From: Eubacteriales bacterium
GTDB taxonomy: Bacteria; Bacillota; Clostridia; Oscillospirales; CAG-272
Direction: 5' to 3'
Assembly (NCBI GenBank): GCA_045586785.1
Contig: JAZNBA010000072.1
Location: 59,197 to 123,196, forward strand
Length of the DNA: 64,000 bases
In this document: positions 29,752 through 53,399 of the stretch, piece by piece
Position numbering within the stretch: the stretch's first letter is position 1
How the letters are laid out: each line of letters starts with the position of its first letter
Position numbers and translations under genes: made by a program
The notes under the pieces: generated by a model
Told to the model about the DNA's origin: nothing
Seen by the model: the letters and a program-made list of their open reading frames with translations, nothing else
Database searches by the model: none

Positions 29752-29755
29752 ATAG

Positions 29756-32953: not shown

Positions 32954-32987
32954 TCTCTATTTTGCTTCGTGCCATCTTGGCACAAGG

Positions 32988-34094: not shown

Positions 34095-34132
34095 GACTTT
34101 GTAAAAAATATTTGATTGGAGGAGATTTGATT

Positions 34133-34483
34133 ATGGAACTCACCCACACCGAAAGAAACGGCATTATGTATCCCGACTTGGCACTCCCCGAGCAGACCAA
34201 TTACCCCATCGGCAAGTACGGCAGAATGCGCCTCAACTATCTCAAAAAGCATCGCCGCGGCACCTACACCACGCTTCTCACCTCGTGCACGCTCAATCAG
34301 CATCTCTATGAAACCGAGCAGGAGGTACAGCGGCAGATCGACCTCACCCTATCACGGTTGGTAAAAGAGCTCGGCATCACCGAAGAACTTAAAGTTTCTA
34401 ACCTTCTTCAGTGGGTACAAGAAATGAACAACGCGAAACAAAGCGCGGAGGAAATCGTGCTGAATGAAATAATCTGCAAATAA
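34133..34483 (+). CDS. TnpV-like transposon-encoded protein
   Basis: MELTHTERNGIMYPDLALPEQTNYPIGKYGRMRLNYLKKHRRGTYTTLL is typical of the TnpV family as I recall it from Tn4451-type elements. Confidence 0.7.
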   Translation: MELTHTERNGIMYPDLALPEQTNYPIGKYGRMRLNYLKKHRRGTYTTLLTSCTLNQHLYETEQEVQRQIDLTLSRLVKELGITEELKVSNLLQWVQEMNNAKQSAEEIVLNEIICK

Positions 34484-34496
34484 CTATCTAATCAAT

Positions 34497-35549: not shown

Positions 35550-35556
35550 AAAAATA

Positions 35557-35584
35557 CACCTAACAATCTATTAGGTGAACAAAA
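35557..35584 (+). repeat. inverted repeat, left copy (IR-L)
   Basis: CACCTAACAATCTATTAGGTGAACAAAA. Its reverse complement matches 35689-35716 at 27/28 positions. Confidence 0.9.
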
Positions 35585-35604
35585 CAATATACTAACCCAT
35601 TATT

Positions 35605-35633
35605 ATTCTACCACAATACTCGCTTTTTTTCAA
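35605..35633 (-). promoter_or_regulatory. promoter inside the IR-flanked segment, currently facing the integrase 3' end
   Basis: Minus strand TTGAAA-17 nt-TAGAAT with TG extended -10. Confidence 0.5.
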
Positions 35634-35688
35634 TACATAGGAAGAAAAATTTACATATTTCTCCTCTATAGATGAACATCTCACGGAT

Positions 35689-35716
35689 TTTTGTTCACCT
35701 AATAGATTGTTACGTG
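35689..35716 (-). repeat. inverted repeat, right copy (IR-R)
   Basis: TTTTGTTCACCTAATAGATTGTTACGTG. Also part of a local 14-bp hairpin, 35684-35727. Confidence 0.9.
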
Positions 35717-35788
35717 AACAAAATCCGACTTGAAAATTCATCTATACCATTGACCAAATCAATGAAATAATAACAAGGAGAAACGAAA

Positions 35789-37759
35789 ATGTGTAAGTAT
35801 GAAGTGCCCAGTTCAGAATTAATGCGGAATATCAATTCGATGATTAAACCCTACGGAGTGAAGTATTTTGTCTCTGAAGAAAAATTCAATAATAACGAAA
35901 GCTGCTTTCCAACATTTGCTCGGAAGCCTGCTTCTGATGAGGACATTGCTAAATATGTGACCCATTACGGTTTGAGTCGCTATACAAAAGCCAACCAAAA
36001 AGCATTATTGGAATATTTTTGGGACGATTATCGTACTTTTTTCGGACGAGAACACGACAGAATAATTTGCACCAACTCTTTCCGTCGCTTGCAATATAAA
36101 ACGCAAGTTATGGTTAACTCTGCATCCGACGAGCAAAGAACAAGACTGTTGCATTCCTCGGAGGTTCAGAGAATCGCTAAAAAGATAGCCATTGGTGTTG
36201 GAGCCAATGCGGAATTGTCAGAAAATATAGCAATTGCTCACGATATTGGTCATGCTCCTTTTGGTCATAGTGGCGAGGAAGCAATTAGTGACTACATACT
36301 CGATATGTTCGAAAAAATCCCATCGCATTCAATTAAGAGTGGAACCACTTGTTTCTTACATGCAATGCAAAGCACCAAAGTGTTAGATTATATTGCTACC
36401 CATCCTACACTTCAGGAGAATGGTATAAATGGCTTGGGACTTTCAGATTATGTTTTAGAAGGAGTTTTGAAGCATGATTCTGATGTGTTTGCGGAGGAAA
36501 TCATAGCTGCACCCTTAAAAAAGCAGTACGATCCGGAAAGGCTGTGCGGTATTGTAGGCATCGGATCATACGAGGAAGTTAAGCGTAAGTTGCAGACATA
36601 CAATATAAAAAATAATGTCTTCATAGATACATATCCCCAAACATTTATCGGTAGCATTGAATCTCAAATTGTTGCTTGGGCTGATAAGATTGCATACCTT
36701 GGACACGATTGGGAAGAATTTTTGGATAATAAACTTCTTGAAAAATTAATGTCGAGAATCAATGATATGATTCACAAGATGTTTGAAGTTTCTTCGAAAA
36801 TTGCAGACACAAACGAAAAATTCTACATTGATACTATTTGTTTCAGACTTAAAGAGATTGAAGCCATATATTCAACTCTTGATGATACTGAAAAGGCAAA
36901 TAAAACTTTTGGTTGGAAAAAGGTTTATCAAGAATTATTGCGCATCATCGAGATTATTGAAAAAATTGAATCCGAGAACAAATTCGACCATTTCTCATCA
37001 AAAGAATATAGAGCTTTGAAAGACTATTTTGTTATGGTAATTAGTTGGACAAAGTTGCTGGACAAATATCCCTCCCCCCAAGCACTTAAATATGATCCCA
37101 TTTATATTTTCTATTTGTATTTGTCTGAGGTCAGAACAACAAATATAACAAAAAATGTTACAGAGAAAATTATCTCTGGATCCAACAGTATCCTTTCATC
37201 ACACAATTTCAACACAAGAGAAGAGTATTTATTGCACTGTAATCAAAAATGGGTTGAAGTTTTTAATAAAATCTTGTCTAACACAAGTCTTGATGAAAAA
37301 TCCAAGAAAAAGCAATTGAAAGACAGTATTCGCACTTGTTTTTTAGTTCAATTTGGTTCAGAGCAAACAAAAAACAACATCGTTAACATTGATTATAATC
37401 CTGATGTAATAAAGAAATCCAATACAGGATATTATTCTTTCGATGATACATACTGTTGCTTATTAAACATCATAGGTTGCATTTTTAGTCAATATATTAA
37501 AAGTACCCGTGTTAATTTTATGACTCAGAAGGCGAAAAGAATTGTTGCGGGATTGATGGAATATTACGTTAACCATCCCGAAATGCTCCCGTATTCTCAA
37601 CGAAGAAAGAATAACTTAAGCGATACCGATGAAGAACTTATTTATTTTATTGCAGATTATGTTGGTGGTATGACCGATCGTATGGCTAAGAAAAAATATG
37701 ATGAAATTATGTCATCGGATACCAAGTGGAGTAATGAATACAGTAGCGGCTTGAATTAA
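35789..37759 (+). CDS. dGTPase-like HD-domain (dNTP triphosphohydrolase family) protein with long C-terminal extension
   Basis: 656 aa. REHDRIICTNSFRRLQYKTQV, RTRLLHSSEVQRIAKKIA and AHDIGHAPFGHSGEE blocks. About 28 % GC on a sampled line. Confidence 0.8.
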   Translation: MCKYEVPSSELMRNINSMIKPYGVKYFVSEEKFNNNESCFPTFARKPASDEDIAKYVTHYGLSRYTKANQKALLEYFWDDYRTFFGREHDRIICTNSFRRLQYKTQVMVNSASDEQRTRLLHSSEVQRIAKKIAIGVGANAELSENIAIAHDIGHAPFGHSGEEAISDYILDMFEKIPSHSIKSGTTCFLHAMQSTKVLDYIATHPTLQENGINGLGLSDYVLEGVLKHDSDVFAEEIIAAPLKKQYDPERLCGIVGIGSYEEVKRKLQTYNIKNNVFIDTYPQTFIGSIESQIVAWADKIAYLGHDWEEFLDNKLLEKLMSRINDMIHKMFEVSSKIADTNEKFYIDTICFRLKEIEAIYSTLDDTEKANKTFGWKKVYQELLRIIEIIEKIESENKFDHFSSKEYRALKDYFVMVISWTKLLDKYPSPQALKYDPIYIFYLYLSEVRTTNITKNVTEKIISGSNSILSSHNFNTREEYLLHCNQKWVEVFNKILSNTSLDEKSKKKQLKDSIRTCFLVQFGSEQTKNNIVNIDYNPDVIKKSNTGYYSFDDTYCCLLNIIGCIFSQYIKSTRVNFMTQKAKRIVAGLMEYYVNHPEMLPYSQRRKNNLSDTDEELIYFIADYVGGMTDRMAKKKYDEIMSSDTKWSNEYSSGLN

Positions 37760-37780
37760 TCGCTATTTCAAGAATATTAT

Positions 37781-39388
37781 ATGAGAAATAAACCTTTCCC
37801 ACACTACAAGCACCCCATTTACGAAACCTTTGAACAGCTTCTCACTATTGTCAAATCAAAACACGGCGACAAGGTACTGTTCCGCACCCGACGTCACAAG
37901 AGCGAGGTAACTGTTACATACAATCAGTTTTACGATGATGTGCAAAAGCTCGCATCGCATTTCAGCAAGACCTACGGCGCGCACAACAAGATTGCCGTGA
38001 TCGGTGAAAACAGCTACGAATGGATTTTGACCTATTTCGCTGTCGTTTGCAGCAACAACATCATCGTTCCCATCGATAAGGAACTCTCCGCTCCCGACAT
38101 TGCCGAGCTACTGAAGGAGTGCGAGTATCGCACCTTGATCTATTCCAAAGACTACGATGACATTGCCGACGATATTGGTGGCATCATCCCCGATTTTGAA
38201 GCAATCGCCATGCCCAAACTGCGTAGGTTTATCGAAGCAGTTGAGGCAGCAGAGTGGATCGAAACCGACAAAAATGCGCTTGCATCGATCATTTACACTT
38301 CCGGCACGACAGGAAAGAGCAAGGGTGTTATGCTCTCGCAGAAGAATATTTGCGAGGACACCCGTGCGGCGTGCGGTTTCATCGAGCTGTACGGCAGAAG
38401 CCTTGCACTCTTGCCGTTCCATCACACGTTTGCGTTTACGGTCAGCGGTCTTGCCAATATCTATTACGGCGTTGATACCCTCATCGTTCCTTCTCTCAAA
38501 AACGTGATGGAGCTGATCAACGATTTCAAGCCGACCTACCTTGCCGTTGTTCCCATGATCGTCGAAAAGGTGGACAAGGGTATCCTTCAAAAGATTGAAA
38601 AGAGCGGCAAGAAGAAACTGCTCGGCGTGCTTGATAAGGTCTGCAAGCCTTTCGATGCGCTCGGTATCGGTCTGCGAAACAAGTGCTTTTCCGCCATCAG
38701 GGGCGGTCTCGGCGGCGAGCTTGACTTCATCATTTCGGGCGGCGCGCCCATCGATCAGCAGATCATTGACCGCTTTGATTCCTATGGCATCAGAATTATG
38801 AATGGCTATGGCATTTCCGAATGCTCACCCGTTGTCAGCGTCAACCGCCGTTATCACTACCGCGCGGGTAGTATCGGTCAGGCTCTCCCCGAGGTCAAGG
38901 TCATGATCGATAATCCCGACGAGAATGACGAGGGAGAGATCTGTGTGCAGGGCGATATCGTCATGCTCGGCTACTACAATATGCCCGAAGAGACCGAAAA
39001 GGCAATCGTTGACGGCTGGTTCCACACGGGCGACCTCGGCAAGCTCGACAAGGACGGCTTCATCTACATCACGGGGCGCATTAAGAATCTGATCATCTTG
39101 TCTAACGGTAAAAACGTTTCGCCCGAAGAGCTTGAAACGCTGATCGGTCGCATCCCCGGCGTTGTCGAATGCCTCGTCTCCGAGGAAGATAATAAGCTCG
39201 TTGCCGAGATCTATCCCAATGAAGAATTCCGCGCAACGCAGAATGACATTCAAGCATATTTCGACGAGCAGATCGGCCAGCTCAACGATACACTCCCGCC
39301 CTATAAGGCGATTGCAAAGGTCGCTATCCGTGACACCGAATTTGTAAAAACTACCACCAAGAAAATTAAGAGAACATACAAAAAGTGA
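37781..39388 (+). CDS. acyl-AMP/CoA ligase (fatty-acid activating adenylate-forming enzyme)
   Basis: 535 aa. IIYTSGTTGKSKGV, GYGISE, HTGDLG, ITGRIKNLIILSNGKNVSPEELE. Confidence 0.85.
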   Translation: MRNKPFPHYKHPIYETFEQLLTIVKSKHGDKVLFRTRRHKSEVTVTYNQFYDDVQKLASHFSKTYGAHNKIAVIGENSYEWILTYFAVVCSNNIIVPIDKELSAPDIAELLKECEYRTLIYSKDYDDIADDIGGIIPDFEAIAMPKLRRFIEAVEAAEWIETDKNALASIIYTSGTTGKSKGVMLSQKNICEDTRAACGFIELYGRSLALLPFHHTFAFTVSGLANIYYGVDTLIVPSLKNVMELINDFKPTYLAVVPMIVEKVDKGILQKIEKSGKKKLLGVLDKVCKPFDALGIGLRNKCFSAIRGGLGGELDFIISGGAPIDQQIIDRFDSYGIRIMNGYGISECSPVVSVNRRYHYRAGSIGQALPEVKVMIDNPDENDEGEICVQGDIVMLGYYNMPEETEKAIVDGWFHTGDLGKLDKDGFIYITGRIKNLIILSNGKNVSPEELETLIGRIPGVVECLVSEEDNKLVAEIYPNEEFRATQNDIQAYFDEQIGQLNDTLPPYKAIAKVAIRDTEFVKTTTKKIKRTYKK

Positions 39389-39398
39389 GGACAAAACC

Positions 39399-39626
39399 AT
39401 GTTAGATAAAGTAATTTCCATCATCAGCGAATATCAGGACATCCCTGCAGACACCATTCACGCCGATAGCCACCTCGTCAATGACCTCGGCTTCACCTCC
39501 TACGACGTGGTCAGCCTCGTCGGAAAATTTGAGGACGAGTTTGACATCGAAGTCCCCGACAGAAAGATCAAGCTCATGAAAACCGTGGACGATATCGTAA
39601 AATTCATCGAGGCAGCAATAGAATAA
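39399..39626 (+). CDS. acyl carrier protein
   Basis: 75 aa. LVNDLGFTSYDVVSL phosphopantetheine-site block. Confidence 0.85.
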   Translation: MLDKVISIISEYQDIPADTIHADSHLVNDLGFTSYDVVSLVGKFEDEFDIEVPDRKIKLMKTVDDIVKFIEAAIE

Positions 39627-39698
39627 TTATTGGTTCTATAAACACTAACCATACAAACACACATAACATTCATATAAAAAGAAATAGGAGAATGAACA

Positions 39699-40244
39699 AT
39701 GAGTCAGTACATCAAAATCCCCAGAGGACGTATCCCTAATCGCATTAATGATGAAATATTTAGAAAAATTGTATGTATGATTGGAAAAACTGAAAAAAGC
39801 AATTTTGTTACAGCAAAATTGTCAGACTATGCTCGTGGCAAAATTTATTTACGAAACAAGTATGGAATATGTGGATGCACATTGAAGAAAATGCATACAA
39901 TAAAAGTAACTACACACGGATTTGAAAATTTTGGCGATAACTATTCGAATTATGTGTCCCTTCATGAGGGAAAAGCAAAAATAATTTTTATGGTCATCAA
40001 AGACTATATAAAGAAAGACCCTAATAGAATAGCAGAATTACGTCATATATGTGAGGAGTTTTATACTACAAATCCTAATATTACTCCTACATACGCAAAT
40101 TCGTTGTTAAATGAAACGTTCAATTGGATTTTCGATTGTGGGTTGGAAACAGCACCTTTTTGTCAATTTAACAAACGGGACAATGCATGGGATATAGCGA
40201 ATGATATAAAATGTTCCATAGAAGAAATTGACGAAAACTTCTGA
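39699..40244 (+). CDS. hypothetical protein
   Basis: 181 aa with RBS AGGAG. About 30-32 % GC. No motif recognised. Confidence 0.5.
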   Translation: MSQYIKIPRGRIPNRINDEIFRKIVCMIGKTEKSNFVTAKLSDYARGKIYLRNKYGICGCTLKKMHTIKVTTHGFENFGDNYSNYVSLHEGKAKIIFMVIKDYIKKDPNRIAELRHICEEFYTTNPNITPTYANSLLNETFNWIFDCGLETAPFCQFNKRDNAWDIANDIKCSIEEIDENF

Positions 40245-40258
40245 AGGGAGGATATTAT

Positions 40259-40969
40259 ATGCGTCATACTGTGAATGAGTGGCAAGATTTAAGCCTGAAA
40301 AAAGATGTTGAAAATGTGGCAAGAGAAATCAAGAGAAAAGGCAAAAGAGAGAGTATTTTAACACTCGATTTGTTACTTGCCATATTAGCTATTATGTTTG
40401 ATCATTTATTCTCGGAAAATGAGTGCGAAAGGATAATAGTTTTAAGTGTAATTGCTGGATTGGCGGTAATAATTACTGCTATATATTTTTTACTAAAATT
40501 TTTGGATTGGCGTAAAGCGAGAAGAAAAATAAAAAGCGGGATCATAAAAATAAAGCCTTATGTTGATTTGTTTGATAATAATATTTGTTATTATGCCATG
40601 ACAGCAAATACGTTTAGAGAAAATTTCCAAAACGAATCTCATGATTCGTCAATAAAGAACTTCTACTTTATTGAATCGAATTACTATGTGAATAAGTGCA
40701 TAACTGAACTAAATAATATGAAAAATCTCATAGGAGAAATCTTCACAAATGATGAAAATGAAGCTGTTTCAAAAGCGAAAATTCACACTTCAAGATTAGA
40801 GAATATTATTTTGCTTTTATGTGACGCAAGAGTTAATCCAACCTCTGTATCTTCCTCAATAGAAGATACTATACGAATCTCAAAAATATATGATGCACGG
40901 ATGATAAAATTTGTTGAAACTTATAATAAGCAATTTGAAAAAACTATAGAATGGACTTCTTTTCAATAA
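40259..40969 (+). CDS. hypothetical membrane protein
   Basis: 236 aa with RBS GGGAGG. Two predicted TM helices (aa ~33-85), then a soluble domain. About 30 % GC. Confidence 0.5.
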   Translation: MRHTVNEWQDLSLKKDVENVAREIKRKGKRESILTLDLLLAILAIMFDHLFSENECERIIVLSVIAGLAVIITAIYFLLKFLDWRKARRKIKSGIIKIKPYVDLFDNNICYYAMTANTFRENFQNESHDSSIKNFYFIESNYYVNKCITELNNMKNLIGEIFTNDENEAVSKAKIHTSRLENIILLLCDARVNPTSVSSSIEDTIRISKIYDARMIKFVETYNKQFEKTIEWTSFQ

Positions 40970-41041
40970 ACGCTTTCACGTTGAATGTAGTGAAATCAAT
41001 TGAATTTCTACGAGGATTAATCAAAAAATAGATAGGTAAAT

Positions 41042-44000
41042 ATGAAAACATACGCTTTATCCAATGCACAATTAAATATATTAGATACAGAGCTATTTTA
41101 TCGAGGCTCTGCTATCAATATCGTAGGAGGAGTCTGCCTACTTAACGAGCCAATTGAGGAAGAACAGTTGTCATCGGCATTGAACAAACTAATTGCCAAC
41201 AACGATTGGCTCCGCACCAGAATTAGAGGTAACAGATCTTCACTGTATCGTTATGTTTCTGAATATACTGATGCATCTTTTGCAACTTTGGATTTTACCA
41301 ATGTTTCGGAAGCTGAAATGTGGTCTGCATTGGAGGAAGCAAACAAGGCTCCTTTTGATATTTGGGATTCACAACTCTACGATGTAAAATTGGTACGTAC
41401 TCCGAACAATAAAATCGGATATTGGTTCAGAGCGCACCATATTGTTTGTGATGCCGCCAATATGTATCGTATCGTTGCCGAGGTATCGAGCCTTATTTTT
41501 GGCAATGACAATCCGTTGCCGAGTAATGCACGGGTTCGGGATATTACTGCCCGTATGAAAGAAAAGGCGCTTACATATTGGCGTGATAATGAGATCACAG
41601 GACTTGAAAGCCATCGTCCTACGGGAACTGTAGTAGCAGACCGAATGACATTCAAACTGTCGGGCGATATCATGAAAAAGCTGAGTGCGTTTGCTGAATC
41701 CAAACAGATCGCGTGTTCAACCATCGTTGAGGGCGCGTATTATTTGGCTTTGTCTGCTTTGTTTGATAAAGACAGATTTTCAGTCGGTCTTATGTATCTG
41801 GATGACAACAGTGCTTGCGTGGACGGACTTGCCGGACCCCGCGCTTCTGTTGTGCCGACAATTTCAAAACTTGATCCCTCTCTTACCTTTGCGGAATACT
41901 GTGAGGAAATTCTGGATCAGCACATGACGGCATATCGCTATTCATGTTTGCCTTACAGAGATATCCTTTCGGCAGTCAAGCATGATAGCGAAAACAAAAA
42001 TTCCTCGTTTTATGATTTCGTATATTCCTGCCACGCACTCGACACCTCTATTTTGGGGGATTGTGAGATCAAATGGCTTTTCAACGGTTGCTCGGAAGTT
42101 CCGCTGAAATTGAGTGTTATGCCCGAAAAGGATACGCTCAATCTAATGATCGATTGTCGTAAAGGTGTTTACATTGGCGGCTTTACAGAAAAGCTCTATC
42201 AATGTATTCTTTCTGCGCTTAACCACATCTTCGACGCTCCCGATGCACATCTTGGTACATTGGTTAATGCCATCCATGCCGATATCCATCAAACCGGGCA
42301 TATAAGCAAAGAACGTGTTTGTATCGCGGCATCTTTTACTGCTGATCCGATTGACGAATACCTGTATTATTGGGCGCACAGAGATAACGTTATTTTGAAT
42401 TTGTCCTTTGCACCGTATAATCAGATTCAGCAAATGCTTCTCGATCCGAACAGCATATTCCGAAACAATAAAAATGGCACTAACATCATTCTAATGCGTT
42501 TTGAGGATGCGATTCGTCATACGGATGATTCTGCTGAAGCGCGTATTGCGGTCATGCAGCATATGCAAAAGGAATTTACAACCGCCCTGTGTAGCTATCC
42601 TACAGATGCTCCTCGATGCCTTGTAGTGTGTTTGCCTTTTGACGGCAATATTGCGGGTGTGTCTGCCGAGATCGTAGCAAATATGAATGAGCAGATCAAA
42701 GCGGTTTGCTCCAAGATTCCCAATATTCATTATGTCGATACCGACGATCTCTGTGAGAGATACGTTGTTCACGATACCCTTGATACCGTTGCCGATGACG
42801 AAGGTCATATCCCTTATACCACCACATTCTTCGCCGCATTGGGCACTCACGTTTGGCGACAGCTTTGCGCAGCAAAACGAGTGAAAAAACATAAGGTTTT
42901 GGTCGTGGATTGCGATAATACCTTATGGCAAGGTGTTTGCGGTGAAATTGGTGCGACCAATGTAACCGTTGATGGCGGTTACGCATGGTTTCAAAAATTT
43001 CTACTTGCGAAGCGCGAAGAAGGATACCTTCTGGCGATTGCAAGTAAGAACAATCCCGAGGACGTTAAGCGTGTATTTGCCGAAAACAAGCAAATGCTCT
43101 TAAAAGAAAGCGATATTTCCGCTTGGCGCGTATCTTGGAATCCGAAAGCTGAAGAGATCAGATCTATTGCCGAAGAGTTAAATCTTGGGCTTAACAGCTT
43201 TGTCTTTTTCGATGACAATCCCGTTGAATGCGATGCGATGATCGAAGAAAATCCCGAGGTTTTGACAGTACGTATGCCCTTGGATTCTACACAGATTGCT
43301 CCGCTTGTCGGCAACATTTGGGCACTTGACAGCGTATATACCACGGACGAAGATCGCAACCGTGCCGATATGTACCGAGCAGAAAAAGAGCGCGAGCAAG
43401 CGAGAACCGAGGAAAAATCTCTGCACGCATATCTTAAAAAGCTGAACATCCAAATGTATATGTATCCCACCACGCCCGATGAAATTGATCGCGTGGCACA
43501 GCTTACACAGCGCACCAATCAGTTTAACATGAACGGTGTGAGATACCTCAAGGAGGATGTTACCGAATGGCTGCAGAGCGATCACTACGGATGCTATAGT
43601 GTATATGTGAAGGACGCATACGGAGATTACGGTCTTGTCGGCGCGCTCGTCCTTTCTTATACTGACGGCAAGTGTAATTTACAGACCTTTGTCCTTAGTT
43701 GCCGCGTACTCGGACGAGAGATCGAAATTGCTATTTTGAATGAAATTGCCAATATTGCAAGATCACGCGGTGCTTTTGCATTCAGCGCCTCAGTCAAGCG
43801 CACACAGAAAAATGAACCCTTTATGCGCTTCTGGCAGGCGTATGTTGAGGACAATGAAAATATTGTATGTGCGAATTTCAATACGCCTTCGCATATTACG
43901 GTTATCCAAGAAAAATATATTAAGCCTACCTCTCAAAAGGCAAATACAACAGCAGCTGTTAAATCTGTTGCTCATACAGGAACTTGCGCGCTGACGACCG

Positions 44001-47000: not shown

Positions 47001-48559
47001 ATCTTGGAGCAATTTATACTGCTGTTGGAGATTACGAATCGATTGATATTATCGACTATATATCAGGTGTGCTACCACGTTATATGGTTCCGTCAAAGTT
47101 TGTCAAGGTGGACAGTATTCCGCTCAATGTCAACGGTAAAGCAGATAGAAAGAAAGCACGTGAAATTGCTAATCAAATCGAAGACGATGCTGTAGAGGTT
47201 GCGACTTCGGGATATACCGAAGATGTGCTTCTTGCTATTTTCAGAAGAATCACACGCAATAATCGTATCGGAGTTAATGATTCTTTCTTCGAGGCAGGTG
47301 GATCTTCGCTTGGAATCTTCCAAGTTCTGTCCGAGATCGAATCTGTATTTGGCATTAAACTGCAGTATGCCGATGTGTATAAAAACATGACAGTAGCAGG
47401 AATTGCTTCGATGATTGAGGTAGCAACCAGTGCTACATTGCCCAATGTATCCTCTGTCGGAAATGTTACCAAACAAGATATAGAAGAAGTTCTTGATGTA
47501 TCTAAACTACATATCAATAACTCCAGGAATTCCCTCGCAAAAGGTGTTTTGCTTACGGGTGCAAATGGTTTCCTTGGGAATCACTTGCTATATGAGTTGT
47601 TAGTAGAAACAGATTTTGATATATATTGCTTGGTTCGAAAAAAGCGTCGCTTAATAGATGCGATTCAATATTATTGGGGAAACGGCTTTTATCACAGATA
47701 TCAAGCAAGAATTCATTGTATTGAGGGCAATATAGGCATTCCTGGTTTAGGTGTTTCAGCAGAAATGAAAAAGAATATAAGCGTGATTTACCATGCTGCC
47801 GCAAGCACAAAACACTACGGGGAATTTGCCGATAGTTTCCTATCCAACACATTGGGTACACGATATGTTGTTGATTTGTGTGCAGAAATAGGTGCTGAAT
47901 TACATCATATTTCTACTACGGCTGTGTCGGGATTGAATGTTGTAACTGTAGACTACAATGAACAATCAAAACCTCATTTTACAGAAAATGATCTTGAGAT
48001 CGGTCAACACTACGAGGATAATATTTATATTCACAGCAAATTGTTAGCAGAAAAGATCGTATTGTCTGCTATCGAAAAAGGGATGGATGCTTATATTTAT
48101 CGTGTTGGAAACTTGACCGAACGATTCAGCGACGGAGTTTATCAGATGAACAATGAAAATAATGCATTTATGATTAGAGAAAGAGCTATCCGTAAGCTCG
48201 ATGCAATCTCTCCTGCATTCCACTCGTTCATCTTTGAAAAAACACCTATTGACCTTTGCGCAAAAGCAATCTTGGCACTCACAAAACGTAAACATCAAGA
48301 TCATGTATTCCATGTATTCAGTCCGAATGCTTTGAACGGATACGACTACTACAGAGGCATTTTCCCCGACCTTAAAGAAGTAACTGATGAGGAATGGTTT
48401 GCTTTGCTCGATAAGGAGGCAGAAAAGGATACTTCGTGCGCGGTTATGAGGGCATACGTTAAAAATCTGTTAGCCGTTTCAGTTCCAATAGAAACAAAAT
48501 GTGATGTTACATTGAAAGCACTTGAAAAATGTGGCTTCCAATGGCAAGAAAAGGAGTAA
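41042..48559 (+). CDS. hybrid NRPS-like megasynthetase, domain order C - FkbH-like (HAD-IIIC + GNAT-like) - T - C - A - T - R
   Basis: 2505 aa. C1 HHIVCDA (nt ~41435). HAD motif LVVDCDNTLW (~42905). T1 LGGDSL (~44198). C2 HHMVIDG (~44750). A-domain YTSGSTGKPKG / YGPTETT / YRTGDLA / GRIDNQIKIRGYRVE / NGKADRK. T2 AGGSSLG (~47296). R domain LLTGANGFLGNHL and YIHSK (~47550-48050). Confidence 0.9.
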   Translation: MKTYALSNAQLNILDTELFYRGSAINIVGGVCLLNEPIEEEQLSSALNKLIANNDWLRTRIRGNRSSLYRYVSEYTDASFATLDFTNVSEAEMWSALEEANKAPFDIWDSQLYDVKLVRTPNNKIGYWFRAHHIVCDAANMYRIVAEVSSLIFGNDNPLPSNARVRDITARMKEKALTYWRDNEITGLESHRPTGTVVADRMTFKLSGDIMKKLSAFAESKQIACSTIVEGAYYLALSALFDKDRFSVGLMYLDDNSACVDGLAGPRASVVPTISKLDPSLTFAEYCEEILDQHMTAYRYSCLPYRDILSAVKHDSENKNSSFYDFVYSCHALDTSILGDCEIKWLFNGCSEVPLKLSVMPEKDTLNLMIDCRKGVYIGGFTEKLYQCILSALNHIFDAPDAHLGTLVNAIHADIHQTGHISKERVCIAASFTADPIDEYLYYWAHRDNVILNLSFAPYNQIQQMLLDPNSIFRNNKNGTNIILMRFEDAIRHTDDSAEARIAVMQHMQKEFTTALCSYPTDAPRCLVVCLPFDGNIAGVSAEIVANMNEQIKAVCSKIPNIHYVDTDDLCERYVVHDTLDTVADDEGHIPYTTTFFAALGTHVWRQLCAAKRVKKHKVLVVDCDNTLWQGVCGEIGATNVTVDGGYAWFQKFLLAKREEGYLLAIASKNNPEDVKRVFAENKQMLLKESDISAWRVSWNPKAEEIRSIAEELNLGLNSFVFFDDNPVECDAMIEENPEVLTVRMPLDSTQIAPLVGNIWALDSVYTTDEDRNRADMYRAEKEREQARTEEKSLHAYLKKLNIQMYMYPTTPDEIDRVAQLTQRTNQFNMNGVRYLKEDVTEWLQSDHYGCYSVYVKDAYGDYGLVGALVLSYTDGKCNLQTFVLSCRVLGREIEIAILNEIANIARSRGAFAFSASVKRTQKNEPFMRFWQAYVEDNENIVCANFNTPSHITVIQEKYIKPTSQKANTTAAVKSVAHTGTCALTTVPSDIQTNDAELKEFIPLCASEAIAQALGKFIPGQAQGEIVDKVKSVWESVLGLTIDRDDASYFELGGDSLKAVHLISILDKEFGARISVSDIYRYATISDMAKYIATLIPEEAAEFEHISTTEPYPLSSAQQRMFVLQSMNRDSVQYNESQAMEMIGQVNIERIQNAVYEIINRHDILRTAFTLEQGVPVQTVLPCVDIKVETISCTEDSWQKEAIAFRKPFDLSNPPLMRFAVLHTTDTNRNFMLFDAHHMVIDGTSFAVFAEEFVRLYNGEVLPENKYQYIDYVNWENKRKDTPEYESDMAYWVSQFDPMPAPLAWIDDSKRANSIGRGNTLFYATDSELKQSLENYASKNQVTLFSVLLSAYAMTISSLANADEFVVGVPASNRLHHHTLSMMGNFVNSMPIRIATTAESKISALVKSVFDTTTEALNHQSCPYENIVKALQCDRQNNRNPLFDVMFSLQNFVSPIIETKDMKLVQMPMQVGTAKNDIRLFAALHDDHISFEMEYDIDLFDTYFMESFREKYLSVLELMVTDEAMTAGDIATELQHKQKEADRLFLEKYNDTARPGYYDHLVHDMIREQVEKIPDAIALICGGEKLTYRELDDRSSALANILRQKGVRARDKVGIVLPRSPELIVGLLAIMKAGAVYVPADPIYPTERIDYMFGNSEIVCMISQNDMELPSEYIRYDIHELEKEETVEQTIEDETLTPDDLIYILYTSGSTGKPKGVMIKHGAVSNFINSLRELIPYEEQSAILATTTVCFDMSIIELWRTLSFGGTMIFATDNERHDIDAHREMIKKHGISELNITPSQMSVFLLDTNPSIWKSIQTIMIGAEPVPPSLVEKIKHIIPQARIFDLYGPTETTVYSSIMELTNETEVTIGHPIANTKLFVVDSEKKILPIGMTGELCIGGLGLSAGYMNRPDLTERQFVTLAENNEFVYRTGDLATLRADGKMLCHGRIDNQIKIRGYRVELEEIEQSIMKSGLCRECTVFLLDNDHLGAIYTAVGDYESIDIIDYISGVLPRYMVPSKFVKVDSIPLNVNGKADRKKAREIANQIEDDAVEVATSGYTEDVLLAIFRRITRNNRIGVNDSFFEAGGSSLGIFQVLSEIESVFGIKLQYADVYKNMTVAGIASMIEVATSATLPNVSSVGNVTKQDIEEVLDVSKLHINNSRNSLAKGVLLTGANGFLGNHLLYELLVETDFDIYCLVRKKRRLIDAIQYYWGNGFYHRYQARIHCIEGNIGIPGLGVSAEMKKNISVIYHAAASTKHYGEFADSFLSNTLGTRYVVDLCAEIGAELHHISTTAVSGLNVVTVDYNEQSKPHFTENDLEIGQHYEDNIYIHSKLLAEKIVLSAIEKGMDAYIYRVGNLTERFSDGVYQMNNENNAFMIRERAIRKLDAISPAFHSFIFEKTPIDLCAKAILALTKRKHQDHVFHVFSPNALNGYDYYRGIFPDLKEVTDEEWFALLDKEAEKDTSCAVMRAYVKNLLAVSVPIETKCDVTLKALEKCGFQWQEKE

Positions 48560-48563
48560 TGCT

Positions 48564-49331
48564 ATGAAAACAGCAATTATTACTGGCGCATCTTCCGGCG
48601 TTGGCACGGAATTTTTGAAAGTGCTTGTTCATGATAACAGCATCGAAGAATTTTGGATCATCGCAAGAAACGAAAAACGCCTTGAAGAATTAAAAGCACA
48701 ATATTCCAATAAAAGTATCGTTTGCATACCTCTTGATTTGACAAACGAAGAATCAATGCAGGTATATGAAAATCACCTCCGTGCAAAAAAGCCGGAGGTG
48801 GTGACCCTTGTTAATAATGCGGGATTTGGTATTTTAGGAGAGGTATATGGTTCGGATTATGTAGAGCAAGCGAAAATGGTAGATTTGAATTGTCGCGCTC
48901 TCACAACCATTACAACAATAACCTTGCCGTACATGACTGAAAATTCGGGAATCATCAATATGGCTTCTATTGCTGCATACTGCCCAAATCCGAATTTTAC
49001 GGTTTATTGTTCTGCCAAAGCATACGTATTGAGCTATTCTCGTTCATTGCGTTATGAACTGAGAATGAAAAAACGCAAGATCAATTCTCTTGCCGTTTGT
49101 CCCGGACCTATGAACACAAACTTTTGCGCTACTGCAGGAATCACAACACAGTTTGATGCCTTGCCGTTCACTGATCCTGCCAAAGTTGCTAAAACCGCTG
49201 TCAAGAAACTTCGTGAAGGAAAAGCCGTCTATACGCCCGGTGTATTCTTTAAATTTTATCGTTGTATTGCTAAATTACTTCCACACTCGCTTGTGATGGG
49301 ATTTAGCCAAACGATTAAAGATGGAAAATAA
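48564..49331 (+). CDS. short-chain dehydrogenase/reductase (SDR)
   Basis: Start at MKTAIITGASSGVGTEF (AAGGAG upstream). NNAG and YCSAKAY motifs. Confidence 0.85.
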   Translation: MKTAIITGASSGVGTEFLKVLVHDNSIEEFWIIARNEKRLEELKAQYSNKSIVCIPLDLTNEESMQVYENHLRAKKPEVVTLVNNAGFGILGEVYGSDYVEQAKMVDLNCRALTTITTITLPYMTENSGIINMASIAAYCPNPNFTVYCSAKAYVLSYSRSLRYELRMKKRKINSLAVCPGPMNTNFCATAGITTQFDALPFTDPAKVAKTAVKKLREGKAVYTPGVFFKFYRCIAKLLPHSLVMGFSQTIKDGK

Positions 49332-50481
49332 TGAATATATAGATACGAACAGAGCATGGGCTGAAATCGACATAACTAAAGCAAAGGAAAATTATTTTTC
49401 CATAAAGAAATGTCTTAAGCCCCAAACCCAAATATGCTGTGTAGTGAAAGCCAACGCCTACGGTCACGGCTCTGTTCGTATGGCTCAGTTATATGAGTCA
49501 CTTGGTGCAAATTACTTGGCTGTTGCTACGATTGAAGAAGCTCTGCAACTTCGTCAAGCCCCAATAAAGCTACCGATACTAATATTGGGATATACCGCAC
49601 CGCAATATGCAGATGTTCTATCCGATAACGATATTACACAGTGCGTATATTCATTAGACTACGGTCGAGCTTTGTCAAGTTGCGCTACAGAAAAAGGCAA
49701 ACCCGTAAAAGTACATATTAAAATTGATACGGGAATGGGTCGCATTGGATTTCGATACGTTGGCGGCGATGAGCAAGAATTAACAGATGCGCAAACTGTA
49801 TGCCGAATGCAAGGGTTGACTGTAGAAGGTATTTTTACTCACTTTTCGTCTGCTGATGATGAAATAGGTTCTGATGAAACAACAGAGCGACAGTATCAAT
49901 ACTTCTTAGAAGCAATTTCATATTTGGAAAAGCGAGGCATTCAATTTTCTATTCGCCACTGTTCCAATAGTGCTGCAATCCTTAAATATCCCCATACGCA
50001 GCTCGATATGGTACGTGCTGGTATTTCCTTGTATGGATTGGATGCTGATAATTTATTTTCATGTCAAACAAATCTGCATCAGATACTCCAACTAAAAACA
50101 ATAGTTAGCCATATAAAGCTAATCCATAAAGGAGATACTATTGGATACGGTCGGTAATATGTTGCAGAAAAGGACACAATTATCGCAACTCTTCCAATTG
50201 GATATGCGGATGGTCTGTGGAGAGCCAATTCGCGTCACGGAATGCTTGTGAATATTAACGGTGAGTACGCACCCATTATTGGACGAATTTGTATGGATCA
50301 ATGTATGATTGATGTCACAGCGTTGAAAGAAGTAAATGTCGGCGATATTGTTACGGTATATGGTGATAGTGAAATCAACTCAATAGATAAAATTGCAGCA
50401 ATAAACAAAACTATCAGCTATGAGATTGTTTGTAGTGTTAGCGAAAGAGTACCAAAATTTTATGTTAATAACGATTTGTGA
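49321..50481 (+). pseudogene. alr: alanine racemase interrupted by one in-frame TAA (50155-50157)
   Basis: VVKANAYGHG PLP-Lys motif. ...[33 protein letters not shown]... continues in the same frame (50242 minus 49321 is a multiple of 3). Confidence 0.8.
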
Positions 50482-51085
50482 TTTATCCTCGTATTCAGAT
50501 GAGCAATATCAAAATGACCTAACCACAATTCCAGTATGGCGAAGAGAAAAGGCATTGCAATACAAAAAGCTCGATGACCGCAAGCGTTCGGTCTTGGCTT
50601 TCGTGCTATTGCAGCGCGCTCTGCGTGATGAATATGGTATTACCGAGATTCCCGAATTTGTATATAACGAGTTCGGGAAACCCTCGTTGCTGAATCTGCC
50701 CATCCATTTCAGCTTGAGCCATTGTAAAGATGCCGTTGCTTGTGCCGTATCTGATCACAATATCGGTATCGACGTGGAAAGCATCGTGCCGTATAATCCC
50801 GATGTCGCTCGGAGAGTTTGCACGGCAGCAGAGCTTGAAATGCTTGAACAGAGTGATGACAAGGACGTGGAGTTCATCAAGCTTTGGACGGTTAAAGAAG
50901 CAATCTCAAAGTATGAGGGAATGGGATTGTCGTTGCCGTTTGCAGAGATTGATACGATGAATTACTTACTCTGCTCAAACGTAAGTGTTAATAGCAGATA
51001 TGTACTAAGTATTTGCTATGGAAAACGAACCGACACCCTTGCCCTTCCGCGCATCAAAATGCTATCCGCAACTGATTTAATATGA
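50462..51085 (+). CDS. Sfp-type 4'-phosphopantetheinyl transferase
   Basis: FSLSHCKDAVACAV..IGIDVE and KLWTVKEAISKYEG motifs. The start is uncertain (50420 or 50462) and overlaps the alr 3' end. Confidence 0.8.
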   Translation: MLITICDLSSYSDEQYQNDLTTIPVWRREKALQYKKLDDRKRSVLAFVLLQRALRDEYGITEIPEFVYNEFGKPSLLNLPIHFSLSHCKDAVACAVSDHNIGIDVESIVPYNPDVARRVCTAAELEMLEQSDDKDVEFIKLWTVKEAISKYEGMGLSLPFAEIDTMNYLLCSNVSVNSRYVLSICYGKRTDTLALPRIKMLSATDLI

Positions 51086-51090
51086 ATTTG

Positions 51091-51122
51091 AAAAGTTCGT
51101 GTAACAACGAACTTTTCTTTTT
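51091..51122 (+). terminator. rho-independent terminator of the cargo operon
   Basis: AAAAGTTCG-N8-CGAACTTTT followed by CTTTTT. Confidence 0.75.
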
Positions 51123-51156
51123 CGCAAATTAGTGAAACAAATATTTTCATTATATA

Positions 51157-51185
51157 TTGACAAATGCTTTCTTTTATGATATAAT
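51157..51185 (+). promoter_or_regulatory. consensus promoter of the LexA-like gene
   Basis: TTGACA-17 nt-TATAAT with extended -10 TG. Flanked by GAAAC-N5-(G/T)TTTC palindromes at 51134-51148 and 51199-51213. Confidence 0.7.
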
Positions 51186-51224
51186 TCCAATACATACTGA
51201 AACATTATGTTTCTTGGAGGGTTT

Positions 51225-51839
51225 ATGAGAAGAAAAGACGAATCAAAAAAGAGTGTGATACTTGATTTCATCGACGAGTATTACAACGAATATAACGAGA
51301 TCCCTGCCGTAAGAACAATCGCAGAGGGCACGGGAATTGCTTTAGCAACCGTGCATCGTTATCTGCTGTCGCTCAAAGAAAGCGGCGAACTTGAATACAA
51401 CGGTCGCAAGTCGATCTCCACCAAGCGCATTGATTTGGAATCGCGTCACGCTTCTGCTCCCGTTCTCGGTTACGTCCGCTGCGGCGAAGGCGAAGAAGAA
51501 ACAGAGGAAGTCATCGAGTATATCCGTCTCCCCGAAAGCTTAGTTGGCACGGGAGAATTCTTTGTACTGATAGCAAAGGGTGATTCTATGGTGGATGCAG
51601 GCGTTAATGAGGGTGACTATGTCGTTATCCGAAAGCAGAATACCGCTAATGAAGGAGATTATGTTGTTGCACTATATGAGGGACTTAACAATCTGAAAGA
51701 GCTTGCACGTGGTGATAACGGCAGATACATTCTCCGATCTTGTAATGAGGATAAGGCGACCTATCCCGATATCTACCCAAACGATTTGAGAATACAAGGG
51801 GTAGCCGTTTGTGTAATGCATAAATTATTAAGGAGGTAA
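51225..51839 (+). CDS. LexA-like S24 peptidase repressor
   Basis: Winged-HTH N-terminus (RTIAEGTGIALATVHRYLLSLKESGELE). The GDSM serine and a Lys 37 residues later match the E. coli LexA S119/K156 spacing. Confidence 0.85.
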   Translation: MRRKDESKKSVILDFIDEYYNEYNEIPAVRTIAEGTGIALATVHRYLLSLKESGELEYNGRKSISTKRIDLESRHASAPVLGYVRCGEGEEETEEVIEYIRLPESLVGTGEFFVLIAKGDSMVDAGVNEGDYVVIRKQNTANEGDYVVALYEGLNNLKELARGDNGRYILRSCNEDKATYPDIYPNDLRIQGVAVCVMHKLLRR

Positions 51840-51845
51840 AAACTA

Positions 51846-52718
51846 TTGGCTGAAGAAAGAACTATTCAACAAAATGCGGATGAATTGGTCACCGCACTTG
51901 TAAATACAATCGGTAACGGATCTGTGCAGGAAGTAGTTGATAAGAATCGCGACGATGCGCTCGATATATCAAACATTGCGGTCAACCTTCCTCTCAAAGA
52001 AATGCCACCCGAAGTGGTAAAATATCTCAAAGACCTCGTACAAACCGTTAAAGGAACAAGTATGGATACACGCCACGATTTGAGCTTGGCATTCCCTCCC
52101 TCTCATTTTTCGGGCGAAGATAATCCGCTGATGCTTTTCTACAAAGCGTTTTACGACACCGTTACTTATTATACTACACTTATTCAAAGTGTTCCCGAGG
52201 TTCGCGACGCGCTGATAAGGGCAATGGCAGATAAGGGGTATAACGAGGATAATATCGATGAGTTTCTAAAGCGGGAGTGGGACATCAACGCCTATTTGAT
52301 GAACTTGCCTCAGATTGCGGAGATTTTCAAAGAGTTACCAGACTATTCCGATTACAACCACGGAAAGCCTAATAATTATTCTCTACAAAATGCGAAACGT
52401 AAAATTGAACATATGAGTGGCGGTCAACTTGTTGAGAAAGTATCAATTGAGCGTGGCGGTCCTAAGGATGCAAGCGGACAGTATACGCCCTATCCTTTGG
52501 ACGACGAAACCGACGTTACTACGGAAGTCATCGACAAAATATATCTTGAACAATGTCTTGCTCTGCTTTCACCCGAAGACCGTGAGCTCTTGGTACGTCA
52601 CGCCAACGGCGAAACTTATACCGCGCTTGCCAAAGACTACGGATATGCCAATGCAAGCGGTGTCAGAAAACGTATTGAGAGAATTAAAAAACAGATAACT
52701 AATGCATTTGCTGAATAG
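51846..52718 (+). CDS. sigma-70 region-4 / LuxR-type HTH domain protein with unknown N-terminal domain
   Basis: TTG start 9 nt after AAGGAGG. C-terminal LSPEDRELLVRHANGETYTALAKDYGYANASGVRKRIERIKKQI. No region 2 recognised. Confidence 0.55.
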   Translation: MAEERTIQQNADELVTALVNTIGNGSVQEVVDKNRDDALDISNIAVNLPLKEMPPEVVKYLKDLVQTVKGTSMDTRHDLSLAFPPSHFSGEDNPLMLFYKAFYDTVTYYTTLIQSVPEVRDALIRAMADKGYNEDNIDEFLKREWDINAYLMNLPQIAEIFKELPDYSDYNHGKPNNYSLQNAKRKIEHMSGGQLVEKVSIERGGPKDASGQYTPYPLDDETDVTTEVIDKIYLEQCLALLSPEDRELLVRHANGETYTALAKDYGYANASGVRKRIERIKKQITNAFAE

Positions 52719-52727
52719 GAGATAGAC

Positions 52728-53399
52728 ATGACAATTAATAGTATTAGTAGTGATGTAAAATTCCCGGATATGGAATTTTATAATATGAGCACCCCCGGTG
52801 AGATGGCATTATACCTTGCTCACTGTGATTTTTATCCATTCCAAAGCGTTTTGAGAAACAATCAACTTGCGTTAGATGCACTATCTCAAGGATATCGAGA
52901 AATGCTACAAAAGGCACAAGCCAGCGATGATTTTTACACAGAATCTTTTGCTATGACAAGTGGTACATTACACAATTCTCGTGTCAGTTTGCTAACTTAT
53001 TATTCGTTAGTTTTGACTATGGTGTCCATCTTGGAAGAATCAGTAAATACATTGTGTAGAGTATACTACAATATGCTAACGCTGAAAAAACAGCTTAGTG
53101 ATATAAAGGGGCGAGGATTAGAGCGTGCAGCAGAATACTTAAAAAAAGAAGTAGGCATTGAAGGTTTTACCTCAGACCCCCAATGGGAATATATTACAAC
53201 TATTCGTGATGCAAGAAATATGATTGTTCATAACGGCGGACGAGTAATCAAAGATTTTGATAAATTTGATAAATTCAAAATTGGATATAGAGAAGAAGAC
53301 CACCAATTATATTTTGAATACAGCGATATTGAAAAAATGTATAATGCCATTCTTGAATATATTGATAGAGCTTTTAGACTTGTTCCTACAAAAAAATAA
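52728..53399 (+). CDS. hypothetical protein, possible HEPN-type domain
   Basis: 223 aa with RBS AGGAG. Helical. ITTIRDARNMIVHNGG contains an R-x4-H motif in HEPN-like context. Confidence 0.4.
   Translation: MTINSISSDVKFPDMEFYNMSTPGEMALYLAHCDFYPFQSVLRNNQLALDALSQGYREMLQKAQASDDFYTESFAMTSGTLHNSRVSLLTYYSLVLTMVSILEESVNTLCRVYYNMLTLKKQLSDIKGRGLERAAEYLKKEVGIEGFTSDPQWEYITTIRDARNMIVHNGGRVIKDFDKFDKFKIGYREEDHQLYFEYSDIEKMYNAILEYIDRAFRLVPTKK

Follow-up and report, generated by a model that had tools for sequence, protein, structure and literature searches.

A candidate invertible promoter before a dGTPase-family gene and a lipid-like NRPS cluster on a mosaic mobilizable island

We analysed a 64,000-nucleotide stretch of DNA from a Eubacteriales bacterium (contig JAZNBA010000072.1), referred to below as the window. 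It contains a genomic island located next to a tRNA-Glu gene. The main finding is a candidate invertible promoter (inverton), OFF in this sequence, placed before an operon that would couple a dGTPase-family gene, called HD here, to a lipid-like nonribosomal peptide synthetase (NRPS) pathway of the FkbH type. Our reading of the whole island, held with moderate confidence, is a patchwork integrative mobilizable element (IME) beside tRNA-Glu, made of separable modules and bearing a candidate switch on its cargo operon. A preliminary description of the region had proposed a switchable, stress-sensing module with a chemical or defence function. All the components that it listed are present, where it had placed them or nearby. 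Its idea of a single functional unit was not supported, as discussed below.

Anatomy of the candidate promoter switch

The candidate switch is located between a tyrosine recombinase gene and HD. It is delimited by an inverted repeat of 28 nt (35557-35584 / 35689-35716), with 27/28 positions matching and arms 104 nt apart. The repeat sequence has two copies only in the 64 kb window, where 0 are expected by chance. The left core reads CACCTAA-CAATCTA-TTAGGTG and the right core CACCTAA-TAGATTG-TTACGTG (7-7-7). Both cores are extended by GTGAACAAAA-type arms, giving lox-like 14-7-14 sites. The 7-nt spacers are asymmetric and in opposite orientation, which is the geometry of inversion, not of excision. 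A miniature inverted-repeat transposable element was also considered as the source of the repeat and was rejected, with no further copies and no target-site duplication found.

The two sites enclose a promoter, recognised by consensus match only, TTGAAA-17-TGgTAGAAT, on the minus strand (35633 to 35605). With 10/12 consensus positions, it shares the top score among the five promoter-like sites in 34300-35900, and no other site with that score has an upstream TG. The enclosed promoter faces the left arm of the repeat, which forms a terminator-like hairpin on the minus strand. No comparable plus-strand promoter was found between 35550 and 35789. Because the enclosed promoter faces away from the cargo genes and no such plus-strand promoter is seen, the cargo operon appears to be OFF in this sequence. 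The switch region folds strongly as RNA (z = -7.2). The reading of the inverted repeat as an invertible promoter is supported by this anatomy. In the mechanism we propose, the only good promoter of the cargo would lie inside the ~130-bp segment between the lox-like sites, and recombination between these sites would flip it. In the ON state, the HD enzyme and the lipid-like NRPS pathway would be expressed together.

The tyrosine recombinase is the candidate invertase for the neighbouring switch. Its gene stops 8 nt before the left repeat arm. The protein is Xer-like and Xer-sized, with core-binding and catalytic domains and no arm-binding domain, and the catalytic R, HxxR, H and Y are present.

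A related locus, L009, shows the same design with other parts. Its gene order is small serine recombinase – inverted repeat – HD – ligase – NRPS – acyl carrier protein (ACP) – gene pair. The inverted repeat has 24-nt arms, 107 nt apart. Inside it lies a TTGACA-17-TATAAT promoter (12/12), directed at the operon (ON). The small serine recombinase aligns end-to-end with an Mpi-type invertase model. The HD–ligase block is collinear with that of the window (72.6% nucleotide identity over 3.4 kb) and the HD proteins are 60% identical, whereas the switches themselves are without sequence similarity and employ recombinases of different classes. The L009 NRPS has the domain order C-A-T-R (condensation, adenylation, thiolation, reductase), a Ser-type code and only 28% identity to the window NRPS. 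A frameshifted remnant of an NRPS starter C domain lies between the L009 switch and HD (1389-1854). This decayed C-domain N-terminus suggests that the L009 switch once stood directly before an NRPS gene. A further contig, L010, was examined as a third independent HD–ligase locus and rejected, being identical to L009. It begins inside the L009 invertible segment (1258-1364), which is a weak hint of assembly ambiguity and the only hint of inversion.

The candidate invertible promoter of the preliminary description is thus supported by the inverted lox-like sites, the enclosed promoter, the adjoining recombinase and the independent L009 switch of the same design. The term "switchable" is supported for the cargo operon, as far as site anatomy and synteny can tell. 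Several observations weigh on the other side. Inversion was not observed directly, and the orientation is known from one assembled sequence. L009 is the only independent relative with the switch–HD–NRPS arrangement. At a further locus, L011, whose HD is 78% identical, the inverted repeat is weaker (81%) and has no clear internal promoter. The other HD homologue loci show no convincing upstream inverted repeat.

An alternative is that the repeat is no phase switch. The tyrosine recombinase would then be a tRNA-Glu integrase, or a former one, and the sites would be binding or regulatory sites, a relic attP, or a structured leader or terminator. The recombinase is indeed most like Tn1549-type integrases, its closest solved structure being the Tn1549 Int core, and its matches to FimB/E-type invertases are weak; yet the protein has no arm-binding domain. 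On the opposite side of the island lies a degenerate repeat of the tRNA-Glu 3' end, which could mean that the tyrosine recombinase, or its ancestor, acted as an integrase. Against this, no recombinase core site was found at either island end, and the window holds only the two inverted copies. The strong RNA fold and the scoring of the left arm as a minus-strand terminator speak for the alternative, but the opposed asymmetric spacers have inversion geometry and the best promoter lies exactly between the sites. A non-homologous switch with the same geometry precedes the homologous operon of L009, beside an invertase-type serine recombinase. We consider the integrase alternative unlikely and keep the invertible promoter as the preferred reading.

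Table 1. Coordinates of the island features, its left border and the neighbouring radical SAM genes in the window.
Feature	Position	Strand	Remarks
tRNA-Glu	29677..29751	+	ARAGORN, Rfam; 3' end is the left limit of the island
Mobilization and maintenance module	30097..34303	-	Pfam, PHROGs; directly after tRNA-Glu
ParB-like gene	30097-30996	-	Pfam/PHROGs
MobA/VirD2 relaxase	30993-32381	-	Pfam/PHROGs
NikA-like gene	32381-32740	-	Pfam/PHROGs
Weakly ParB-like gene, 332 aa	32988-33986	-	Pfam/PHROGs
Further gene, 106 aa	within 30097..34303	-	
Tyrosine recombinase, 304 aa	34635..35549	+	Pfam Phage_integrase, SAM_3
Candidate invertible promoter	35557..35722	.	lox-like sites in inverted orientation, promoter inside
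Long-form HD dGTPase-family protein, 656 aa	35789..37759	+	first gene of cargo operon; GC 35%
Fatty-acyl AMP/CoA-ligase-type enzyme, 535 aa	37781-39388	+	Pfam, NCBIfam
Free-standing ACP, 75 aa	39399-39626	+	Pfam, NCBIfam
casA, 181 aa	39699-40244	+	family-less; GC 32%
casB, 236 aa	40259-40969	+	family-less; two transmembrane helices and an all-alpha domain (AlphaFold2, AF2); GC 30%
NRPS, 2505 aa	41042..48559	+	domain order C – FkbH – T – C – A – T – R (Pfam)
Short-chain dehydrogenase/reductase (SDR)	48522-49331	+	tailoring gene
Alanine racemase (Alr)	49321-50481	+	otherwise complete; one in-frame stop at 50155-50157
Sfp-type phosphopantetheinyl transferase (PPTase)	50420-51085	+	72% identical to L006 PPTase
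Transcription-unit boundary	51090..51211	+	hairpin, promoter, palindrome
LexA/CI-like S24 repressor, 210 aa	51207-51839	+	Pfam S24 1.5e-20
Conserved protein, 290 aa	51846-52718	+	weak sigma-region-4-like C-terminal helix-turn-helix (HTH)
HEPN-like protein	52728-53399	+	single-gene cargo; GC 34%; slot between 290-aa gene and recombinase
Large serine recombinase	53461..54936	+	Pfam Resolvase, Recombinase, Zn_ribbon
B12-binding radical SAM genes	58454-59794, 59791-61167, 61146-62486, 62488-63879	-	

Genes behind the candidate switch

A ~15-kb string of co-oriented genes, from 35789 to 51085, would constitute the main cargo, in the order HD–acyl ligase–ACP–casAB–NRPS–SDR–Alr–PPTase (Table 1). Weak internal promoter-like sites occur upstream of casA and of the NRPS gene. 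They count against a simple operon, and on their account single-operon transcription is not proven.

HD belongs to the dGTPase family. It scores 180 bits with TIGR01353 (cut-off 152) and 1.8e-55 with the PADLOC dGTPase model, which has no curated cut-off. The catalytic residues H122, H151, D152 and D299 (H..HD..D) are invariant in 24 homologues. The protein matches dGTPases of the PDB and is ~250 residues longer than those solved; its homologues form a long-form subfamily of ~640-870 aa. An exact-sequence look-up of the window HD protein returned nothing on record. A metagenome scan with the HD alignment, whose patterns were generic, returned mostly short housekeeping dGTPases; the only long-form loci that it gave, L018-L025, have no NRPS and no inverted repeat.

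The neighbourhood of two homologues is more informative. In L101 (609-6302), an HD homologue with 58% identity lies between the Thoeris genes ThsA/ThsB and an AriA-like ATPase (scores of 1.7e-134 for ThsA, 1.2e-107 for ThsB and 6.7e-76 for the AriA-like protein). This locus, on a metagenome contig, is a compact defence island. The HD homologue of L102 is likewise flanked by ThsA, ThsB and AriA. A shared downstream partner of HD was sought and rejected, the genes after HD being unrelated in five contexts. These contexts point to HD as a stand-alone gene of defence-island type, which would have been recruited as the first gene of a switch-controlled NRPS operon in one lineage. The enzyme is probably dNTP-depleting and anti-phage. 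Two points count against a defence role: the NCBIfam model NF041026 (antiphage_dGTPase) gives 128.6 bits, below its cut-off of 400, and most HD homologue contexts are uninformative.

Alternatively, HD could be an accessory or a regulator of the NRPS pathway, for example a phosphohydrolase acting on an intermediate or on a nucleotide signal. The HD–ligase junction is kept between the window and L009 even though the HD proteins are only 60% identical. Most homologues at 53-78% identity nevertheless have no ligase or NRPS neighbour, and one stands between Thoeris and AriA. The score below the curated anti-phage cut-off and the ~250 extra residues would fit an accessory function, but the dGTPase catalytic residues are invariant, and the GC content of HD (35%, against 50% for the ligase) is that expected for a separately acquired gene. 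We give the accessory role little credence and retain the recruited defence-type dGTPase.

The following genes encode the acyl ligase–NRPS pathway. The acyl ligase and the ACP, respectively 79% and 95% identical to the L009 proteins, would load a fatty acid. The C-FkbH-T part of the NRPS would then build an O-acyl-glyceryl thioester, as in the initiation of vioprolide and cystomanamide, and C-A-T would add one amino acid. Finally, the R domain, possibly with the SDR, would release an aldehyde or an alcohol. The FkbH domain (TIGR01686, 299 bits) and the thioester reductase domain were both found in the NRPS. The A-domain code, DMINMGLVYK, has no confident match to a known code, and no specificity is assigned to it. 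Two amino-acid modules ending in R, the dipeptide-aldehyde layout, were not found in the NRPS, whose first module carries FkbH in place of A; AusA-type similarity is confined to the T-R region. We predict an O-acyl-glyceroyl amino aldehyde or alcohol as product, and the term "lipid-like" of the preliminary description seems apt for it.

A scan of genome contigs with the NRPS returned one short contig only, L006. Its sequence is 91% identical at the nucleotide level to the window NRPS over residues 1-2132. The L006 NRPS ends in a thioesterase (TE) domain instead of R, and L006 has neither SDR nor Alr. In the window, the R/SDR/Alr segment has a lower GC content. To judge from these differences, the NRPS cluster is itself mosaic. 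The in-frame stop of the racemase gene makes it either a pseudogene or the site of a sequencing error; as a pseudogene it would speak against a working pathway, which may then be impaired.

casA and casB are located inside the NRPS cluster, between the ACP and NRPS genes, so that the "two-gene cassette" of the preliminary description exists at a corrected position. Neither has a family in Pfam, NCBIfam, PADLOC or PHROGs. casB has nine clusters only in a collection of 5.8 billion proteins; its AF2 model (pLDDT 78) has no significant neighbour in the PDB, and an exact-sequence look-up of the window casB protein returned nothing on record. The pair is kept in five other loci (L001-L005), none of which has an NRPS. 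In L001-L004, its neighbours comprise a PDC-S06 protein (E = 8e-256), an effector of the CBASS 2TM type and three serine recombinases; the L005 pair is located inside an integrative and conjugative element. The closest NRPS relatives, L006 (412-1260) and L009 (9968-10703), carry another pair in the same slot after the ACP, composed of a 179-182-aa membrane protein (78% identical between L006 and L009) and a ~100-aa zinc-ribbon protein. The 179-182-aa proteins were considered as divergent forms of casA, which was rejected for lack of BLASTP similarity. Within the biosynthetic cluster, the slot after the ACP seems to be a hotspot for cargo. Per gene, the GC content is 30-35% for HD, casA, casB and the HEPN-like gene and 44-50% for the ligase, ACP and NRPS genes. 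Because of their own GC content, their other settings without NRPS and the different pair found in relatives, casA and casB can be regarded as independent, exchangeable cargo. They are probably a small defence or abortive-infection pair.

One may go further and imagine a bet-hedged state, in which the switch co-expresses a dNTP-depleting HD enzyme and an NRPS making an O-acyl-glyceroyl amino-alcohol or aldehyde lipid. Nucleotide starvation and an envelope-lipid or chemical defence would be the two layers of a mobile anti-phage programme, and under selection for switchable co-expression two lineages would have gained switches of different recombinase families. In this scheme, the lipid product of the NRPS would probably stay in the envelope because there is no exporter. 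We see the full scheme as a long shot.

Limits, backbone and mobility of the island

The island is larger than the preliminary description had it. tRNA-Met and tRNA-Glu occupy 29600-29751 of the window (ARAGORN, Rfam), and an Rfam scan of the window found these two tRNAs only and no other RNA family. The GC content is ~49% before the tRNAs and falls to 36-45% right after them, where gene content shifts too; the left end of the island was bracketed to 29752-29850. The island extends from tRNA-Glu (29.75 kb) to ~54.93 kb, and its initial 4.5 kb lay outside the region first described. On the right, the open reading frame (ORF) of the serine recombinase has 629 aa, and homology covers residues 1 to ~492 (~nt 54935). 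The last 139 codons are read-through into the flanking DNA. In three complete relatives (L012, L013 and L017), the recombinase tails diverge past the same point. Past the end of homology, the GC content is 51%. As homology stops near residue 492 and the GC content jumps, we infer that the element ends at or near the 3' end of the serine recombinase gene. From 34635 to 55350, all genes are co-oriented on the plus strand and tightly packed.

Several repeats were seen around the right end. A perfect 23-3-23 palindrome (54925-54973) stands exactly at the end of the serine recombinase homology, and a second copy of 39 nt is found 136 nt further downstream. These palindromes (54920-55114) may be attachment-site or terminator-like repeats. 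Further on, at 55261-55283 (plus strand), the tRNA-Glu 3' end recurs as a degenerate direct repeat, with 22/23 positions matching and one indel. It is the top match in the window, with a local alignment score of 34 against 16.6 ± 2.1 for shuffles (maximum 26). At ~25.5 kb from tRNA-Glu and only just beyond the serine recombinase element, it is probably a relic att-type site of an older tRNA-targeted integration.

The island has its own recombinases (serine and tyrosine), a MobA/VirD2 relaxase with a NikA-like protein, and a conserved backbone that carries other cargo in L012, L013 and L017, all of which fit an IME. The mobilisable unit with two recombinases of the preliminary description is hence supported at the level of gene identities, and so is its lack of transporter and phage structural genes: in family searches, no island ORF matched a transporter or phage structural family, nor a type IV secretion system or coupling-protein family. 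Phage and plasmid collections, searched by Megablast, had no match to the island. Scans of viral contigs with the 290-aa protein, the HEPN-like protein, the ligase, the tyrosine recombinase and the inverted-repeat arm were negative or irrelevant, so the island does not look like a phage. In the proposed mechanism, the relaxase, NikA-like and ParB-like proteins would let the element hitch-hike on a conjugative pore, and the large serine recombinase at the right end would perform integration and excision.

The relaxase is 35% identical to that of the related element L013. A 26-nt palindromic repeat, ACTTCGGCGCAACTTGCTCCGAAGTT, occurs in three copies (30564-30589, 33911-33936 and 34005-34030; 85-100% identical) inside or beside the two ParB-like genes. 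These repeats may be parS- or oriT-type sites.

Together with the relaxase, NikA-like and ParB-like proteins, the S24 repressor, the 290-aa protein and the serine recombinase form the backbone. A terminator-like hairpin (51090-51117) follows the PPTase gene and a 12/12 consensus promoter with TG (51157-51185) precedes the LexA-like gene. Because these two elements intervene, the backbone operon is a transcription unit separate from the cargo. Between this promoter and the start codon of the LexA-like gene stands a palindrome, AAACAT-T-ATGTTT (51199-51211), a candidate operator for autoregulation. The LexA-like protein has an N-terminal HTH and an S24 domain with the GDSM Ser and the LKEL Lys (aligned to T. 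maritima LexA), and Cys-Gly at the cleavage position instead of Ala-Gly. It scores 96 bits with TIGR00498 (lexA), below the cut-off of 111, and is for that reason not LexA itself. By analogy with SOS-controlled mobile elements, DNA damage would lead the repressor to self-cleave, de-repressing the recombinase operon and allowing excision. The "stress-sensing" part of the preliminary description thus most likely concerns excision and mobility of the element, and neither the chemistry nor the defence genes.

For the 290-aa protein, 109 clusters of homologues were found, with identities of 47-95%. Its AF2 model (pLDDT 59) is confident for the C-terminal HTH only and too poor for a fold search. The serine recombinase is ~50-58% identical to those of L012, L013, L014 and L017. 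L012 has the order S24 – 325-aa – 290-aa (93% identity) – serine recombinase. In L013, the order is S24 – 348 aa – 80 aa – NikA – relaxase – 290-aa (71%) – cargo – S24 – serine recombinase, the cargo being PDC-M38A/B (a PADLOC candidate system; E-values 2.6e-114 and 4.9e-81) with a SEC-C protein. In L017, the serine recombinase directly follows the 290-aa protein (64%). The S24 repressors of L012 and L013 are ~40% identical to that of the window. Because they recur with other cargo, the three genes can be taken as the backbone of an IME family. L012 also has a condensation domain of an NRPS (1-585, minus strand; 79 bits), which begins ~450 nt away from the S24 repressor gene in divergent orientation; NRPS cargo may recur at this type of position in the element family.

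The slot between the 290-aa and serine recombinase genes is empty in L012 and L017, holds PDC-M38 in L013 and the HEPN-like gene in the window. The HEPN-like protein has an RNxxxH motif (RNMIVH), in which R163 and H168 are invariant and N164 nearly so among 40 homologues. Pfam HEPN_RiboL-PSP (PF18735) matches 12/40 family members, with a best E-value of 4e-8; the window protein itself reaches 17.9 bits (cut-off 28.4). From motif and family, the HEPN assignment seems reasonable. The gene is cargo in a slot of the backbone family, and probably a small defence or abortive-infection gene. Like it, the low-GC casA/casB pair would hitch-hike in a variable slot. By neighbourhood, HD, casA/casB and the HEPN-like gene are plausible defence cargo.

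Could the island be a decaying relic without current function, its switch frozen OFF? The racemase gene has an in-frame stop, but every other large ORF is intact, that of the 2505-aa NRPS among them. The recombinase ORF continues for 139 codons into flanking DNA, but variable recombinase tails are normal in this element family. The tRNA repeat is degenerate and the promoter is in the OFF orientation; still, the repeat arms of the switch differ by only 1/28 nt, and catalytic motifs are intact in the tyrosine recombinase, HD and the S24 protein. A relic appears improbable. The strong reading of the preliminary description takes the whole island as one co-evolved system, whose LexA-like, 290-aa and HEPN sensor arm and switch would jointly control a combined defence and small-molecule output. 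It has in its favour the shared orientation and close packing of the genes, the presence of defence-type genes and the NRPS on one mobile unit, and the NRPS condensation-domain gene that adjoins the S24–290aa–SerRec backbone in L012. It is nevertheless very improbable: the backbone genes are found elsewhere with unrelated cargo or with none, and between them and the cargo operon stand a terminator and a consensus promoter of their own; casA/casB and HD are seen at other loci without NRPS; the HEPN slot is empty or otherwise filled in relatives, and the GC content is patchy across genes.

Outside the island (57393-63879, minus strand), B12-binding radical SAM genes form a tandem group of four, which, with a 354-aa gene without family, adjoins a trio of ECF (extracytoplasmic function) sigma, anti-sigma and YfjL-like genes. 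The radical SAM group may be a separate biosynthetic cluster.

Significance and comparison with known systems

Taken overall, the patchwork IME would be an ordinary mosaic mobilizable element with defence-type cargo, which guards against over-reading gene adjacency. The candidate inverton would be of wider interest. Gut-bacterial invertons are known mainly for surface structures. If the NRPS is phase-variable, its small-molecule output would be heterogeneous within a gut Clostridia clone and invisible in cultures locked OFF, which would be directly relevant to "silent" gene clusters. If the NRPS is co-transcribed with the dGTPase-family gene, a link between lipid-like chemistry and defence by nucleotide depletion could be put to the test. 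Cargo in gut metagenomes could be mined through the backbone family (S24, 290-aa, serine recombinase), which has at least two slots for it. Given their PDC-S06 and CBASS-type neighbours, casA and casB are a candidate new defence pair.

Among known elements, the IME_Rho_tet family of gut Bacillota, whose serine recombinase is terminal, offers a comparison (PMC12904643), as do IMEs in general (PMC5704250, PMC5357655). Both IME_Rho_tet and the island combine a relaxase and its accessory factor with the lack of a conjugation pore. In both, a large serine recombinase occupies the 3' end, there are putative transcription factors, and a conserved backbone bears exchangeable cargo. The island differs in its cargo, which is the NRPS with defence-type genes and not tet genes, and in its mobilization module, inverted relative to the recombinase operon. 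It also appears to end at the recombinase 3' end, not 81-90 bp past the stop codon, and has a second (tyrosine) recombinase.

SOS-responsive repressors of mobile elements include lambda CI and SXT SetR. The S24 protein of the window shares with them the N-terminal HTH and the S24 self-cleavage domain with Ser and Lys, and its gene is likewise first in a recombinase operon, with a palindrome between promoter and start codon. It differs by Cys-Gly at the cleavage position, as in UmuD.

Known invertons include the Bacteroides capsule and S-layer switches, the C. difficile RecV-type switches and E. coli fimS. The candidate switch resembles them by its short inverted repeats around a promoter, the adjacent recombinase gene and the ON/OFF geometry. 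It differs in what it would control, an NRPS cluster and a dGTPase-family gene instead of surface structures. An inverton survey is available (PMC11892184), and our literature search found no paper with an invertible promoter directly before an NRPS cluster.

HD can be compared with the anti-phage dGTPases, with which it shares the HD dGTPase fold, intact catalytic residues, the PADLOC match and a homologue neighbouring Thoeris and AriA. It differs by its 656-aa long form, its score below the curated cut-off and its apparent co-transcription with a biosynthetic cluster. Tal et al. (2022) reportedly described such anti-phage dGTPases and their nucleotide depletion. Anti-phage dGTPases act by nucleotide depletion (PMC13519002). 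Small serine recombinases have been linked to defence genes, inversion as a regulator being speculated only (PMC13552941, 2026), and a recombinase of this marker type precedes the HD gene of L009.

For the NRPS, Guo et al. (2017) are said to have described the dipeptide-aldehyde NRPS of gut Clostridia, with the order C-A-T-C-A-T-R. A closer likeness is found in the acyl-glycerate initiation of vioprolide and cystomanamide, which uses FAAL (fatty-acyl AMP ligase), an ester-forming C domain and FkbH (PMC8949500). As there, the window pathway has an acyl-activating enzyme and a carrier protein, then a C domain and FkbH (glyceryl loading) in the place of an A domain. It differs from vioprolide and cystomanamide by its single amino-acid module, its reductive release (R and SDR) and its host, of Clostridia type and not a myxobacterium.

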